Shown here: piece by piece, positions 459 to 58,579 of the stretch
Layout: each line of letters opens with the position of its first letter
Numbering within the stretch: the first letter of the stretch is position 1
Assembly: GCA_951406725.2 (NCBI GenBank)
Contig: OX597819.1
Span: forward strand, 54,870,001-54,934,000
Length of the DNA stretch: 64,000 bases
Direction: 5' to 3'
Source of the DNA: Octopus vulgaris
Lineage: Eukaryota
Made by a program: the position numbers and the translations under genes
Notes under the pieces: model-generated
The model's input: the letters and a program-made list of their open reading frames with translations, nothing else
The model's database searches: none
What the model was told of the DNA's origin: nothing

Positions 459-506
459 TTTGTCACTGAAGATAACGAGTCAGGTCGAAACACCAGTGTC
501 TAACGA
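459..506 (+). ncRNA. Degenerate type I hammerhead ribozyme motif (Penelope-like)
   Basis: TTGTCA-CTGAAGA(466-472)-T-AACGAGTCAGGTC-GAAA(487-490)-CACCAGTG-TC-TAACGA. Core boxes and GUC triplet are intact, stem I pairs 5/6, stem III is near-palindromic (ACACCAGTGT), stem II is damaged. Confidence 0.5.
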
Positions 507-1025
507 CCTGCCGACAACATTGTGAACGGGTTCCGTATTTTTGAACACAATTCTCAATGAGAAGTTTGTCTGGGGACGTCCTACGTTTGTATATTCATTA
601 TAAATGTCATAAACATCCTTGCTTTTCCTTCTGTTTATGGTTTCGTACGACCGAATGCCATATATTCTGGTTCCACACGAATGCAATGTAATCCCTTTTT
701 AACTGTTCTTGAGTATATTGCATATTCGTTATGTAGTGGCCGTTTGTTTTAGGATTCAAAACTTCATTCAATAACCAGACTTTTACGTTAGACATCCTTC
801 ATTAGAACTCCTTCATTTATCGATTTCCTGCTGGTTAATGAAAATTCAGAAGCTGGATTTTAAACCATACAATTGTAAACAGTGGAAATATAATAGTTGA
901 ATATTAATTTGTGTTCTTATTTTGTTACACCACAGCTGCTTTGTGTAATAATGTTTATTAAATGATTTATTATTATTTAAGAAACACACAAAAGCCGTTC
1001 GATTCACTTCAACATTTAAGTTTAA

Positions 1026-1076
1026 TTTATCAAAATATTTTCGTCGCATTAAGACCGCGACCTGTTCACTGACAAA
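1026..1076 (-). ncRNA. Second (inverted) copy of the G3-C8 hammerhead variant
   Basis: Mirror copy in the left arm. Its two differences fall in loop II and in stem I as a G-U wobble. Confidence 0.6.
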
Positions 1077-1098
1077 AATCCGTGATGCAGCACGGATT

Positions 1099-1149
1099 TT
1101 TGTCAGTGAACAGGTCGCGGTCTTAAAGCGACGAAAATATTTTGACAAA
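1099..1149 (+). ncRNA. Minimal type I hammerhead variant with G3-C8 core
   Basis: Stem I TTTGTCA(1099-1105)/TGACAAA(1143-1149); core GTGAACA(1106-1112); extra G; stem II GTCGC/GCGAC; GAAA(1133-1136); palindromic AATATT stem III; UUU triplet. Confidence 0.65.
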
Positions 1150-1996
1150 TTAAACTTAAATGTTGAAGTGAATCGAACGGCTTTTGTGTGTTTCTTAAAT
1201 GGCTTAAAACACCTTCCACGCTGCAATTGTTTTCGTTTCAGCACACGATCTCAGATCAAATCACTTGCTATGCAAGTATATCTCCGTAATTTATTATTAT
1301 TGCTAGCCATTAAATGAAATAACTTCTTATTGAAAACCAGGGAAAATGTTTACTCACTTGGATTTATATCATACTTTTGTAAATAAACCAATCGATATTT
1401 TTTGCGTGAGAGTACTCGTAAGCAAACATCTAGTGAACACACGTTCTTTTGAGAGATATTATTATATTTGAATAATGAGAGTTAAAAATGTGAAGGAACA
1501 TATGTTCTTAACGGTAATTGATTCACTAGCCAATTGTATAAACTATGAAAATCACGTATCAGTTGGATATAGTGTTGGTTAAAATTAATAGATAAAACAT
1601 CTATTGTGTTGCAACAACTGCTTCATACACTGGGGGCAAATGTCAAAAATGTGCATCATGAAAAAAATAAGATGTGTTTGGAAGAAAATTTCCAGCAAAA
1701 ACAAAACAAAAAAAGCACGAATGAAAACATTAGCATAAAACAATAAACAAATCATAAAATCCTCACACATTTACGAATATGTGTTGCGTGTATGTGTAGT
1801 CTAAATAAGAGTGCGTTTAGTTGTGTATGTATGTGTGTGTATGTGGACAAATGGGCTGCTTCGGCTCAGTGTTTAAGATGCATCTCTGTTTGCTAACTAA
1901 AGTGTTGATCTTTCACACTATGTCAGTGGCTTTGTGTAGTGTGTGACTGGAATAAAGATATGCTGTCAATGTATAGATATTATGTCAATGTAGATT

Positions 1997-3556: not shown

Positions 3557-3585
<29 letters not shown>

Positions 3586-3587
<2 letters not shown>

Positions 3588-3822
3588 GGGCGGCGAGCTG
3601 GCAGAAACATTAGCACGCCGGGCGAAATGCGTAGCCGTATTTCGTCTGCCGATATGTTCTGAGTTCAAATTCCGCCGAGGTCGACTGTGCCTTTCATCCT
3701 TTCCAGGGTCGATGAATTAAGTACCAGTTACGCACTGGGGTCGATATAATCGACTTAATCTGTGTGTCTGTCCTTGTTTGTCCCCTCTGTGTTTAGCCCC
3801 TTGTGGGTAGTAAAGGAAATAT
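3586..3822 (+). mobile_element. SINE family B
   Basis: Matches 1997-2235. Confidence 0.85.
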
Positions 3823-4261: not shown

Positions 4262-4395
4262 AATTTATATCGACCCCGAAAGGATGAAAGGCAAAGTCGA
4301 TCTCGGCGAAATTTGAACTCAGAACGTGACGGCAGACGAAATACGGCTACGCGTTTCGCCCGGCATGCTAACGTTTCTGCCAGCTCGCCGCCTTT
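4262..4395 (-). mobile_element. SINE family B, 5' part
   Basis: Reverse complement of the family B head and core. Confidence 0.8.
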
Positions 4396-4567: not shown

Positions 4568-4712
4568 TATTCTGTTGTGTCAGGGGAGAGTCATTTTTTT
4601 TGTGCCTTATAATTTAACACACTAACTAAGTATATTAAATTATAAGGCACAAAAAGTGTGTTAAATTATAAGGTACAAAAAGAAAATGACTCCTCCCAGA
4701 CACAACAGAATA
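4568..4712. repeat. Inverted repeat, ~55-bp arms
   Basis: 4568-4622 versus 4656-4712; the spacer holds an extra partial arm copy (TTAAATTATAAGGCACAAAAA). Confidence 0.85.
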
Positions 4713-4981
4713 TGCTTCAACACACGAACTCAAATAAAGAATCTTGCAAACCAAATCCAAAATCGAAATATATATTTGTAAGTTAGAAGCAAAAACACAA
4801 AGAAAAAATAATTGCTTATTAAAAATTTTTTATACTTACTGCTTTTTATTACTGACCTGTGCTGGGTCACTCTTTTGTGGGGGTTTTATTTGATTATATG
4901 AACCCATTCTTCATCTGGTTATTTATTCACATTTCGTAGTAAAGCTGACCCAGTTTTAAAGAAACCTATCTATCTATCTAC

Positions 4982-5053
<72 letters not shown>

Positions 5054-6307
5054 AACATAAGACTAAATCTCCTGGTGTCAGGAGATTTATGCTAATCCAT
5101 CATAAGGAGCTGAAACATAGCAATCAAGATACAAGGAAACAACCAAAGCTTGATCAAAACCATAGCTTGAAAAATAAAATTTTACTATTGCAGAGAAGCC
5201 TTTCTGATTTTCGAAGCCACGGAATATAAATCAGGGAAATCCAAATATTAATTTGAACATGTTGTTACGAACGCCGTAGACTGGGGTACTCGGCCTGAGA
5301 AATTATCACGTGAAAACGTTAAATGCTACAACAAAAAAAAAAGAAAAGAAAAGAAAAAAGTGTAGATTATATCGATAGTTGAAATTTCGTAAACACCGGC
5401 TGATGGGACAAAAATAAATAAATATATAAAATAAAACAAACCTCAGCAGGAAAATATAAAACAGAAATTAAAAGAACAAAGAGAGTTTGAAAGCACAATG
5501 CTCCAAACTACACCAGCTTAATCAAAAATTTATGATTAAAGCTGAAAAATTAAAATATGACTTTATATATTATGTTTAACAGTCATTTTTGTATTTGACT
5601 TGCGAAATTCTTAATGTGAACTCGTGTGTTGAAACATATTTTGTTGTACCTCGGAAGGGTTACTATGTCAATAATAAACACACACACACAAATGCTATTT
5701 CACTTCTTTATTTTATTTTTTTACTTTATTCATACATTTTTTATAAAAGAAAAAGAACCACTGCGTTTGTTTATTATGGGTGCAATGACCCTTTATATAT
5801 ACAGCAAAAAGCTTAGTAGAATGTTTGCCATAAATCATAACCAGTTGATCGTATCTTTGATGCTAAAAAACAATCTTTGGGAAAGACGCCTCATCAAAAG
5901 AATAAGTTCAAAAATATGGTTTATCTGTATAGAAAAGTAGTAACGAATTTGACAAGCAAGCCGCATGATGTATAGGAAAATGGTCTAAAGAAAATGACAA
6001 ATAGAAATTCCCCAAGACCACATCTTTTAACAATATATTGTTGAAAAATCTGTAGCACTATGTGGAAAGAATGTTGGCGGTGCTTTAGATGTGTAGCAAA
6101 TAATGAAAATTTTGCTCACACCTTTTTATACAGTGAAGAAAATAGGATATTGGATTAATGAGAAGAGAAGTTTTCCGTTGTCCATCGTGTTTTTTTGTTT
6201 TGTTTTTTTTTTCTGTTAAAAGTGTACATGGAACACTAAGGTTCTAGGAAAAGAAAAGAAAATAACGTTGGAAAGTTTTGTTCATAGAAGAAGTATGGTT
6301 GCTAAAA

Positions 6308-31466: not shown

Positions 31467-32310
31467 ATGTCAGAAAACGGATTAAACGGACACAGGAATA
31501 ACTTGACGAGCCTTCAGTGGAAAGTTGGATTTATTAATTCAGAGCAGAAATACTTAACAGCTGAGACATTCGGTCATAAGATAAATGCTTCTGGAACGGG
31601 TTTAAAGAAAAGACAAGCATGGACATTGGAGCAAGACCCGAAAGAGGAGGTAGTCTACATTCGGAGCCACTTAGGTCGATACCTGTCTTCAGATAGATAT
31701 GGAAATATTACCGGAGAGTGCGAAGAGCCAGGCCGTTCGGAAAAGTTTTCTATTGAATATAATGATAAGGGCCAGTGGGCAATTAAGAACGTAGAACATG
31801 GTTGTTATGTGGGAGGAATCGATAACAATGTTATTGGACATAACAAGCCGCCCACATCCACAGAATGGTGGACCTTACAATTAGCAATTCATCCACAAGT
31901 TAACCTTAAAAACGTAAATAGGAAAGTTTATGCCCGTCTAGCAGCCGAGGAGGGCGAAATTCAATTTACCGAGGTGATTCCATGGGGCCAAGATTGTTTG
32001 ATCATTTTGAAATTTGTCGAGGGCAAATATGCACTGGTCACTTGTGATAATCGGTATTTACACCGTGATGGCCATCTGGTCGAGGAGTTGTCTCCAGAAA
32101 CTTTATTTACAATTGAGCTCAAGTCGGGTCAAATCTCTGGTCTAGCTCTGAAAGATGTTGACGGTTGCTACTTAACCGCTGTCGGACACACTGCCGTAAT
32201 GAAGGCACGTAACAGAGCCATCACAAAAGACGAACTATTTACTATCGAAGACAGCCATCCACAAGTCACCTTTACTTCCCATACTGGCAGAATTGTATCA
32301 ATTAAGCAAG
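31467..32310 (+). CDS. FSCN: Fascin (singed) actin-bundling protein, first coding exon (beta-trefoils 1, 2 and start of 3)
   Basis: Fascin motifs KYLTAETFGHKINAS..LKKRQAWTLE, SHLGRYLS, LAIHPQVNL, IPWGQD, TKDELFTIEDSHPQV. Donor CAAG|GTAAGC at 32310/32311, phase 1 after 281 codons. Confidence 0.97.
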
Positions 32311-33623
32311 GTAAGCCCGTAACTTCCCAATCCTTCCAATATCCATTCACATAGAGAAACGTATCTATAAAATTTCATAAATTAATAAATATTAGCATTT
32401 TACCTATGAATGAATCGGTGTTGAATTAATAGGAAATCATTTAATGTTACTATTTTTATAAGGGGAATATCAAGCTCATTCATTCAATTGTTCGTTTGCT
32501 TCCGCAATCATTTTAGCATCTTCTCTTTCCAACATAGTTGGGATTCCTCCTAATCTCGCTATTATGAAATTGTTCTCTAAATTTTACTCCTGTAACTTGA
32601 AATGTAAACGACCTGCCATTTCAACAGCATTTCGATTTATTATTGCATGTTTCACCTTTTTAAAATTAAACTAGAATGATGTTATCGAAGAAGAGGAAAC
32701 TCTTGAACCTTCGCATCTTCTAGGGGATTTTCATGTTAATTTCCTCCTTTCCCATTTTTTGTGCAGGGTATTAACCGGCTAATTTTATTCATGCTACATT
32801 TTCTCTACAATGTACATATTTCATGTACTGATCTGAAATAAAACAGTAGAGTCGGGGTATCTTATCCGAATTTTTAATTTCGTTTTTAATTTTTTTTTAG
32901 TGTCAATTTTTACCTTTCATTTTATTTCAAGGAAATGACACATTCAAAACATTAATTCTTTATATAGTTTTTTTGCTTTTTTTTTTCTAAATTATTACTA
33001 TATCTTGTATTTTTTTTTTTCTTGTTTAAGTCACAATGATTCAGCATGACTGTTTTATCAGTAAATCCTATGTGTAAATGAGGGAGAGTTCAGACTGCTG
33101 TGTGGTAGCGGTGGCAGAGGTTATGGTAGACCGTTGTCAGTCGCTATCATCATCATTTATAATGCTGCCCTAGACCTTGCAAGTTACTACTACACACAAT
33201 TTCTACGACTGCTTCTCCGCTAGAAATCTTTCAACCTTTCTCTGTTTCCCTTCCTTTTTCAATTTCCATTTTTCTCTTTTCTTTTCCATTTTTTCTCTCT
33301 TTTTCTTTATATCTCCCTCTTTTTACCCTCCTTTTCTTCCTCGTTGTCTTTAATAAGTGATAAAAATGACATGTTTTTAACATAAATTTGAGCTGTTTCA
33401 TCGTTATCGACATCTTATTGTTCTTATCAAACCTCCCCTTACATACATACATACTAACCTCGTGTCTTTTAGCTCATTAGTTGAAATCGAAAACGCGAAG
33501 GTTCTTTAGAGCTGCTGAAACATGGTAGTTCTGACAGCACACATGTTCAATGCATGGACGTTATTCAGTCACCGCATTAATTATTGTCATTAACCAATTA
33601 CACTTGTCAATATGTTCAAATTC

Positions 33624-44383: not shown

Positions 44384-44946
44384 ATATATATATATATATA
44401 GTTCCAGAGTTGTAAGTTTGATTTTTTTTAATGCTGGGTTAACTGCTAGCCATATAGTGTTTAAACCAACCAAGTCTGGCCCAAATATTGTTTTATATTC
44501 AGGCTCACTAGATCTAGCCTCTCACATCTGCCTGACAATGTCATTCCATAGATGAATAAACACGTCATTGAAATTTCAAAGCAATGAGATTAATGCATTA
44601 TGCATTCAAAAGAATCTGAATAAATAAGCATTACATTTGACAATAATCTGAAAGCTAAATGATTAAAAGTCATGCAGAACTTTATATAATTTTCTCAGTC
44701 CTTTTTAATGAAATGCAGTTATTCCAGTATATGAATCATTAATGTATAATTATTACATGAATATGGATGACATTTACTGATAGTGATTTGGTCTGAAACT
44801 GTTGAAACTAAAACAATTATAGCATAGAAGACATAGGCCATTCAAAAGCACACAGACAAAATTTCCTCATACCAACTGCAACCTGGTCACTGACAATGCC
44901 ACTGTAACTAATTTGAGGTGAGGCTTTCAGTCAGTGTGTATACATA

Positions 44947-57778: not shown

Positions 57779-58579
57779 ACTGTACTCTCTCATGTGTGAT
57801 GGCTGGCTGTACTTTGTACCATTTTCATCCATATAATAATTTCTGTTATCTAGAATTAATTATACAATTAGTAATCATTGTAATCATTAATGTCATAAGT
57901 TAGTCAACATTATCAACTACATAGTTTTACTACAACATCTAATTAAAGAAATAACTAGGTTGAAGTGGGACTAACATTAAACTGGGTATGACATTAAAAC
58001 TGTATCCAGTGGTGAGGCTTCTGTTTGGGAATTCTTCAGTTGTGGGGAGCATGGAGTGACCTCTTAATTACCATTACTCTCAGATCTGTACTGATCTAGA
58101 ACAGTTGTGCCTATCAGGGTCCTGTCTATGGGTAAATAGATTTTTGTAAGAGTAGATTGAGCTCCTTAGTTGCCGTGAAAGCAATCAATTTAGGAGGAAA
58201 ACTCCAAACTTGATACCGTCTTCCAACATGTCATAATGCAGTACAGAAGAAACTAACATGAGGTACGTCTAATAACATAGATTCATCCTATAGAGGCAAG
58301 TCTCTCATGTCCGTATGCATTCTGCTGAAGGCGGAGATAATGGGAAATGATGATGTCACTGACCAGGTACATGAATGTGTGCAGAAAAGTTTGACACCTC
58401 AAGAAGTAAATGAAAGGTGAAGTGAAACACTTTTGTGTGTTTTTAAAATGGCTAAAATAGTTGTTCCATGATGTAAATGCTTCAGTTTTGTTTTCTCCCC
58501 CACCTCACCCACTAATCACCTCGAAATTAAATCACTTACTATATATATATATATATAATTGTATGTATATATATGTATA

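Follow-up and report, generated by a model that had tools for sequence, protein, structure and literature searches.

Minimal type I hammerhead ribozymes are an established component of metazoan Penelope-like elements (PLEs), in which they lie within the pseudo-long terminal repeat (pseudo-LTR), hold an extra base between A9 and G10.1, contain a G10.1-C11.1 pair and a palindromic stem III, commonly have U17, and occur as thousands of solo copies and as pairs on opposite strands (PMC4209133; here and below, our statements about earlier work refer to the parts of each paper that were available to us). Departures from the CUGANGA core consensus are also on record: U3-A8 covariation is known from Schistosoma (Cervera and de la Pena 2014, PMC4209133), and natural core variants in which positions 3 and 8 covary are active (Perreault et al. 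2011, PMC3088659). For the Poseidon element of Anolis carolinensis (PAc), cleavage needs protein, both target strands are nicked at AT-rich sites, uncut RNA is the substrate, the tail is the gap between two internal reverse-transcription start sites, and an engineered C3G/G8C exchange partly restores activity (Frangieh et al. 2024, PMC11167929). Here we analysed a 64,000-nucleotide stretch of the Octopus vulgaris genome (GenBank assembly GCA_951406725.2, contig OX597819.1, positions 54,870,001 to 54,934,000 of the forward strand; hereafter the window), which holds a solo inverted pseudo-LTR copy of a young, endonuclease-bearing Penelope-like element whose hammerhead motif carries G3-C8. As an insertion the copy is ordinary; it is unusual in its ribozyme core.

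Compared with the described systems, the octopus motif shares all the features listed above for the metazoan hammerheads, while its stem I has 7 bp against the usual 4-5, and the rows examined in Figure S3 of that study all have C3 or U3 and no G3, unlike the family of the window copy (family A; PMC4209133). The natural variants seen in PMC3088659 are likewise limited to U3-A8, as opposed to the G3-C8 found here. The octopus motif, like the PAc hammerhead, lies near a start codon, but the octopus element belongs to a different clade, its swap is natural and fixed, its tail measures about 60 bp rather than 30-40, and its motif is placed wholly in the 5′ untranslated region (UTR; PMC11167929). 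With Nematis elements it has in common a C-terminal GIY-YIG domain, a short CX3CX2C linker, an inverted arm with a tail, and (TA)n targeting (Craig et al. 2021, PMC8557442).

The initial annotation, made from the letters of the window, had described positions 975-1200 as a palindrome, and the inverted repeat is real, the arms 975-1087 and 1088-1200 being reverse complements with three mismatches in 113 bp (110/113 paired). The feature does not end at 1200, however: the plus arm extends to 1288, and 978-1288 forms a single insertion flanked by a 13-bp AT-rich target-site duplication, the left copy at 965-977 being identical to the right copy at 1289-1301. Elsewhere in the family, target duplications are about 9-14 bp at non-microsatellite loci, and targets are AT-rich or (TA)n. 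Within the insertion, an inverted and tail-less pseudo-LTR arm on the minus strand (978-1083), ending near unit position +115 and thus short of the usual +143 to +152, is joined to a full pseudo-LTR unit on the plus strand (1084-1288, unit +2 to +206), which is 96% identical to the 3′ pseudo-LTR of one endonuclease-bearing copy and comprises 5′ UTR, hammerhead motif, the first 30 codons of an open reading frame (ORF), and the tail. The ORF start (1199-1288, plus strand) begins with the ATG that is the first of the open frame in near-full-length copies and contains a 1-bp deletion in the window copy, and the tail of about 60 bp, present on one arm only (1229-1288, plus strand), likely spans the interval that separates two internal start sites of reverse transcription.

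Both arms parse as minimal type I hammerheads with the core GTGAACA, the layout that had been claimed for the two strands. In the plus arm (1099-1149), a 7-bp stem I (1099-1105/1143-1149) encloses the core strand (1106-1112, with G3 at 1106 and C8 at 1111), one extra G, a 5-bp stem II (1114-1118/1128-1132), GAA, the palindromic AATATT (1136-1141), and U17 at 1142, after which the cut is predicted; the minus-strand motif (1026-1076), with its cut predicted after 1033 on that strand, departs from it in a single loop II base and in a G-U wobble within stem I. The type I features present are stems I and II, U4 G5 A6, A9, G12 A13 A14, A15.1-U16.1, and H17. The C3/G8 identities of CUGANGA are replaced by G3 and C8, which form a Watson-Crick pair, so that the compensatory swap proposed by the initial annotation holds. 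A descriptor set to the strictness of the motif itself matched the two sites only in the window and none in 60 Markov-resampled windows. When the isolated motif was folded, stems I and II formed (z -3.1 and -2.4), and both kept a probability near 1 in 5′ RNAs of 70-206 nt taken from the element itself. When 978-1288 is read through as one RNA, by comparison, a long hairpin of -190 kcal/mol takes over and the two stems are lost, the probability of stem I falling to 0, in keeping with the earlier suggestion that such a hairpin would mask the ribozyme. A search of the PDB returned no relevant match. We consider it very probable that the motif descends from a hammerhead.

The identity of the parent element was established through a locus at which two inverted arms flank a GIY-YIG fragment (L081). 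A search with this fragment gave 150 scored matches, many of them 94-98% identical. Of the 27 distinct loci examined, 26 carry the unit downstream of the endonuclease at a distance of about 1 kb, and one carries it upstream of the ORF. At three loci (L218, L219, and L223) the unit passes directly into the ORF and itself contains the first ATG of that frame (window position 1199), which bears out the expectation of a linked reverse transcriptase (RT) and GIY-YIG frame. This ORF of about 1,000 amino acids (aa) contains DKSG, YVDD, YIGET, and the CX3CX2C linker, and matches the GIY-YIG model PF01541 at 25.4 bits (cut-off 22.6). It did not match Pfam RVT_1, and its identification as an RT is based on the motifs, on homologues named as RT, and on a PLE that does match RVT_1, to which it is 27% identical. 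Between the ORF and the 3′ pseudo-LTR lies a UTR of about 1 kb that is rich in microsatellites, which sets the element apart from the Nematis elements described. Because the same unit stands at the 5′ start and at the 3′ end of an element with RT and GIY-YIG, it is a pseudo-LTR, and that 978-1288 belongs to a Penelope-like retrotransposon is practically certain. The initial annotation had spoken of a Penelope- or retrozyme-like family with an inverted pseudo-LTR; the Penelope and inverted pseudo-LTR parts stand, and the retrozyme-like part does not, as an autonomous element has the unit for its 5′ end and the copies sampled are scattered singly or in inverted form rather than in tandem. Judged by linker spacing alone, the element would be of Nematis type: compared by eye with Figure S2 of PMC8557442, the linker is followed by 7 residues before the next Cys, which is the spacing of the Nematis rows there. 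The linker speaks against an assignment to Neptune, in which about 25-30 residues precede that Cys. As a separate observation, a database protein whose annotation names a dynein regulatory complex subunit isoform (P0078) includes a piece that is 66% identical to the element's ORF over 15% of the ORF and is possibly an exonised or mis-annotated copy of the element.

The family is abundant. A core 17-mer had 6,746 exact matches in the 2.8-Gb genome against one for its reversed control, and a 24-mer from the downstream part of the unit had 10,537, giving more than 10,000 arms. Copy anatomy was studied on contig C1, where 111 stretches within the first 31 Mb yielded 139 distinct arms at 92 loci. 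Arm 3′ ends fell into two groups, at +198 to +206 (80/139) and at +143 to +152 (53/139). Half of the loci were palindromic (46/92) and half were single arms (46/92); palindrome centres varied, yet each of the 46 palindromic loci joined one long, tailed arm to one short, tail-less arm. An inverted, 5′-truncated arm with a one-sided tail is also found in long copies, for example L081 and L160-L162. At the 5′ side, 66 of the 128 arms without upstream extension started at +8 or earlier. The base directly before +1, a C in the element, was G in 13 of 23 arms (p about 1e-4 against 0.2), which fits a copied cap. No tandem array was found among the 92 sampled loci, and a direct partial repeat was seen at one.

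Three further observations concern individual loci. Seven palindromic loci share one junction and were counted as one event; this identical junction (L012, L014, L191, L192, L195, L196, and L201) belongs to a common element about 1.45 kb in length, whose terminus, a short hairpin with CTAG preceding (TA)n, resembles the 3′ end of a Helitron. It seems that this element carried a palindromic copy along as a passenger and thereby re-amplified it. At L019 and L167 a copy stands directly before an intronless frame, presumably one resembling dCMP deaminase, duplicated at two nearby loci. A 3.4-kb, three-copy tandem on contig C2 (171.238-171.252 Mb, L071-L072) was considered as a tandem array of the family and rejected, being a duplicated segment next to an unrelated Penelope-like element, which has an RT and GIY-YIG frame of 764 aa and a DKG motif. 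Part of the end of that element is contained, in inverted orientation, in the tandem unit.

Within family A, G3 and C8 were both present in 5,573 of the 6,130 copies with an intact stem II, with 219 copies lacking G3 and 338 having G3 and lacking C8. None of 100 non-G3 copies, among the matches listed, had C3/G8, and so the deviations reflect decay rather than covariation, and G3-C8 is the founding state of the family. The initial annotation had called for a genome-wide look at stem covariation and at G3/C8 retention; the retention is evident, and 3-8 covariation, not found within family A, appears between families only. Among 110 arms recovered through a downstream anchor, deviation was 1.6% in the core and 2.6% in stem I, compared with 4.7-5.8% in downstream regions, and the core is thus not as variable as its flanks. 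Since dead copies decay neutrally, the informative comparison is that between subfamilies and families. Only one of the 35 structural columns outside CpG sites held a variant of the kind that marks subfamilies (frequency of at least 10%), a G-U wobble in stem I, compared with 17 of the 114 other columns (p 0.043).

Between families, the 3-8 pair changes identity and keeps its pairing. An older family, B, sampled through downstream DNA, is about 68% identical to A and differs from it at N7, in loop II, in the outer stem I pair, and in the length of the stem III palindrome; among 30 loci, 12 that extend into the core were selected by eye, counting the query, and of these 9 have G3 and 10 have C8. 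G3-C8 is fixed in both family A and the older family B. Family C (4,622 matches) has the same anatomy, encodes an endonuclease about 50% identical to that of A, and was placed as sister to A with support of 96/98 in a tree of 10 rows built from the relatives found here; an Octopus vulgaris database protein is 97% identical to its protein. Here C3-G8 was found in 93 of 100 copies among the matches listed, together with a compensatory change in stem II. Beyond the octopus, we found 12 metagenome relatives, of which 4 had no usable downstream DNA and 8 had DNA after the ORF; the motif followed the ORF in 3 of these 8 (0.007 expected by chance), with U3-A8 in L287 and L288 and C3-G8 in L292, and was absent from the other 5, two of which have fewer than 130 bases there. 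Each family examined thus has a Watson-Crick combination at this place, G-C in A and B, C-G in C, L292, and a further octopus family, D, and U-A in L287 and L288, and these three states at one position across families indicate that the 3-8 pair covaries between them. No RT or endonuclease was found beside family B or D loci, so that the link of these families to the ORF is one of pseudo-LTR similarity only. The stem III palindrome is retained through an indel from AATATT in family A to AATT in family B; in family C stem III is not palindromic. The 3-8 pair exists only in the active hammerhead conformation (PMC3884650). The same study raises a pairing of G3 with C17; U17 is common in motifs of this kind, and we therefore did not count the plausible G3-U17 link.

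Among other hammerhead-like sequences, a repeat clustered on contig C1 at 7.5-9.4 Mb and 206.6 Mb (L296-L305, L324, and L325) has a canonical type I motif with a longer stem III and is possibly a retrozyme or another family. In the window itself, a canonical CTGAAGA...GAAA motif with weak stems follows TTTGTCA at 459-510 (plus strand); it resembles loci L314 and L315 and is probably a decayed copy of another hammerhead-bearing repeat family.

From these data we propose the following route, in which RNA would start at unit +1 and be capped. The context of +1 resembles what we take to be the initiator consensus. An internal promoter that includes an initiator is known from Drosophila Penelope (PMC2377424). 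The element's protein would nick the two strands of an AT-rich target at sites roughly 13 bp from each other, and each nick would prime reverse transcription at an internal position of the RNA, one near +206 and the other near +146. Both complementary DNAs (cDNAs), 150-200 nt long, would reach the same 5′ end and be joined there, giving a palindrome with one tail; such twin internal priming appears probable to us. Because the copies start at the likely transcription start and not at the cut site, uncut RNA is the likely template. An intron may lie at the 5′ boundary; reading the sharpness of that boundary as a splice acceptor (CTAAC resembling a branch point, pyrimidines, AG) was tried and rejected, as copies keep the AG and have no common upstream exon. 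For the presence of hammerheads on both strands, described in the initial annotation, we found no separate function; the arrangement is explained by integration, tailed and tail-less arms being joined at 46/46 loci. The palindrome would arise from two cDNAs meeting at the 5′ end, and two-strand hammerheads are thus a by-product. As for the ribozyme, two motifs would pair via AATATT, or the element's protein would fold one, with slow cutting after U1142; cutting would take place in the RNA of intact elements and not in the hairpin of the palindrome, and cut RNA would not be the inserted form. We predict that the motif is likely a weakly active ribozyme dependent on a dimer or on protein, and rate measurable cleavage as somewhat more probable than its absence. 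The whole reading, a pseudo-LTR insertion bearing a G3-C8 hammerhead motif that is such a weakly active ribozyme, seems quite probable. More tentatively, and at rather less than even likelihood, the ribozyme could be active and long fixed in a very successful animal retrotransposon lineage, and yet not make the template end: selection would maintain the catalytic 3-8 pair in its three Watson-Crick states, and with only uncut, capped RNA inserted, cleavage would act as a switch that removes the cap-bearing leader and withdraws the RNA from the template pool once two copies, or copy and protein, meet.

The most serious competing explanation is that a hammerhead-derived motif no longer cuts, its fold being kept for protein binding, translation control, promoter function, or by drift, with G3-C8 tolerated or due to chance. 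Several results that weigh against our reading also speak for this one. Copy starts are not enriched at the cut site, with 2 of 128 arms starting within two bases of it and about 2.7 expected from background. C replaces A9 in 82 of 100 family C copies among the matches listed, and family D has an imperfect stem I around its canonical C3-G8 core; both families have nevertheless spread, and selection on the motif looks loose in this clade. The difference in conservation between A and B is not significant, their majority sequences being identical at 36 of 40 structural positions versus 121 of 155 elsewhere (p 0.065). Ribozyme mutants of the Anolis element had no effect on insertion in vitro (PMC11167929), and Naiads thrive without canonical hammerheads (PMC8557442). 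Other points trouble our reading without bearing specifically on this rival: stem II deviated in 6.9% among the 110 arms, mostly through CpG decay; the between-family covariation rests on few independent events, and the route from C3-G8 to G3-C8 necessarily passes through a mispair; an AATATT dimer helix was not favoured in free-energy cofolding of two motifs; many of the G bases before +1 could be a one-base overlap from the other arm; and copies are not independent, seven sharing the junction carried by another element and two pairs being duplications. Rfam reported no hammerhead, only microRNA (miRNA) hairpins below threshold, but it also missed the canonical relative L292, and so this negative is uninformative. 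Against a motif that no longer cuts stand the Watson-Crick 3-8 combination in every family examined, a pair specific to the active conformation (PMC3884650), the integrity of all other core bases in A and B, and the avoidance of the core by subfamily changes. We therefore judge loss of cutting to be improbable, though it is the alternative that survives best. In family C the abundant subfamily has C9 and rarer subfamilies keep A9 (L254-L283); C9 is also seen in the metagenome relative L288.

A non-autonomous retrozyme spreading via circular RNA from ribozyme cleavage is very unlikely. The unit has the appearance of one, being about 206 bp long, non-coding when alone, present in very high copy number, and furnished with a type I motif, and animal retrozymes have been reported to derive from pseudo-LTRs (bioRxiv 10.64898/2026.07.22.740005). 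Its copies, however, follow the sequence of the element's 5′ end and have their limits at +1, +146, and +206, not at the cut site, and direct partial repeats (1/92) and tandem arrays (0/92) are respectively rare and absent among the sampled loci. Least credible of all is a foldback DNA transposon (miniature inverted-repeat transposable element) or small-RNA hairpin with an incidental hammerhead match, for while the inverted repeat is near-perfect, half of the sampled loci are palindromic, and Rfam miRNA models match below gathering, the arms are never symmetric (one tail in 46/46), centres vary, single arms make up the other half of the loci, and the unit runs without a break into an ORF with RT and GIY-YIG.

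Elsewhere in the window, decayed remnants of pseudo-LTRs from the related families B, C, and D lie at 4573-4756, 5562-5728, 44782-44918, and 58356-58488. A short interspersed repeat is present in several copies and both orientations (1988-2332, 3578-3818, and 4268-4395), and a long fascin gene exon (PF06268, E 1e-35) occupies 31467-32354 on the plus strand, about 30 kb downstream of the insertion.

In the literature, we found natural G3-C8 nowhere and met it only in engineered mutants (PMC11167929, PMC3884650, and PMC8495972, as far as their text was available), a coverage that is incomplete and leaves a prior report possible; an Octopus repeat paper (PMC13282606) makes no mention of hammerheads or ribozymes. 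If the motif cuts, family A would provide a natural example of a core swap that we otherwise found in print only as an engineered rescue mutant, and searches based on CUGANGA would overlook motifs by the thousand in a single genome and may mislabel elements as "ribozyme-free". The copy anatomy gives genome-scale support for two internal priming sites and an uncut template, previously described in vitro for one lizard element. Together, the related families, with G3-C8, C3-G8, U3-A8, and A9C, offer a ready series for studying the role of the hammerhead in Penelope-like elements.
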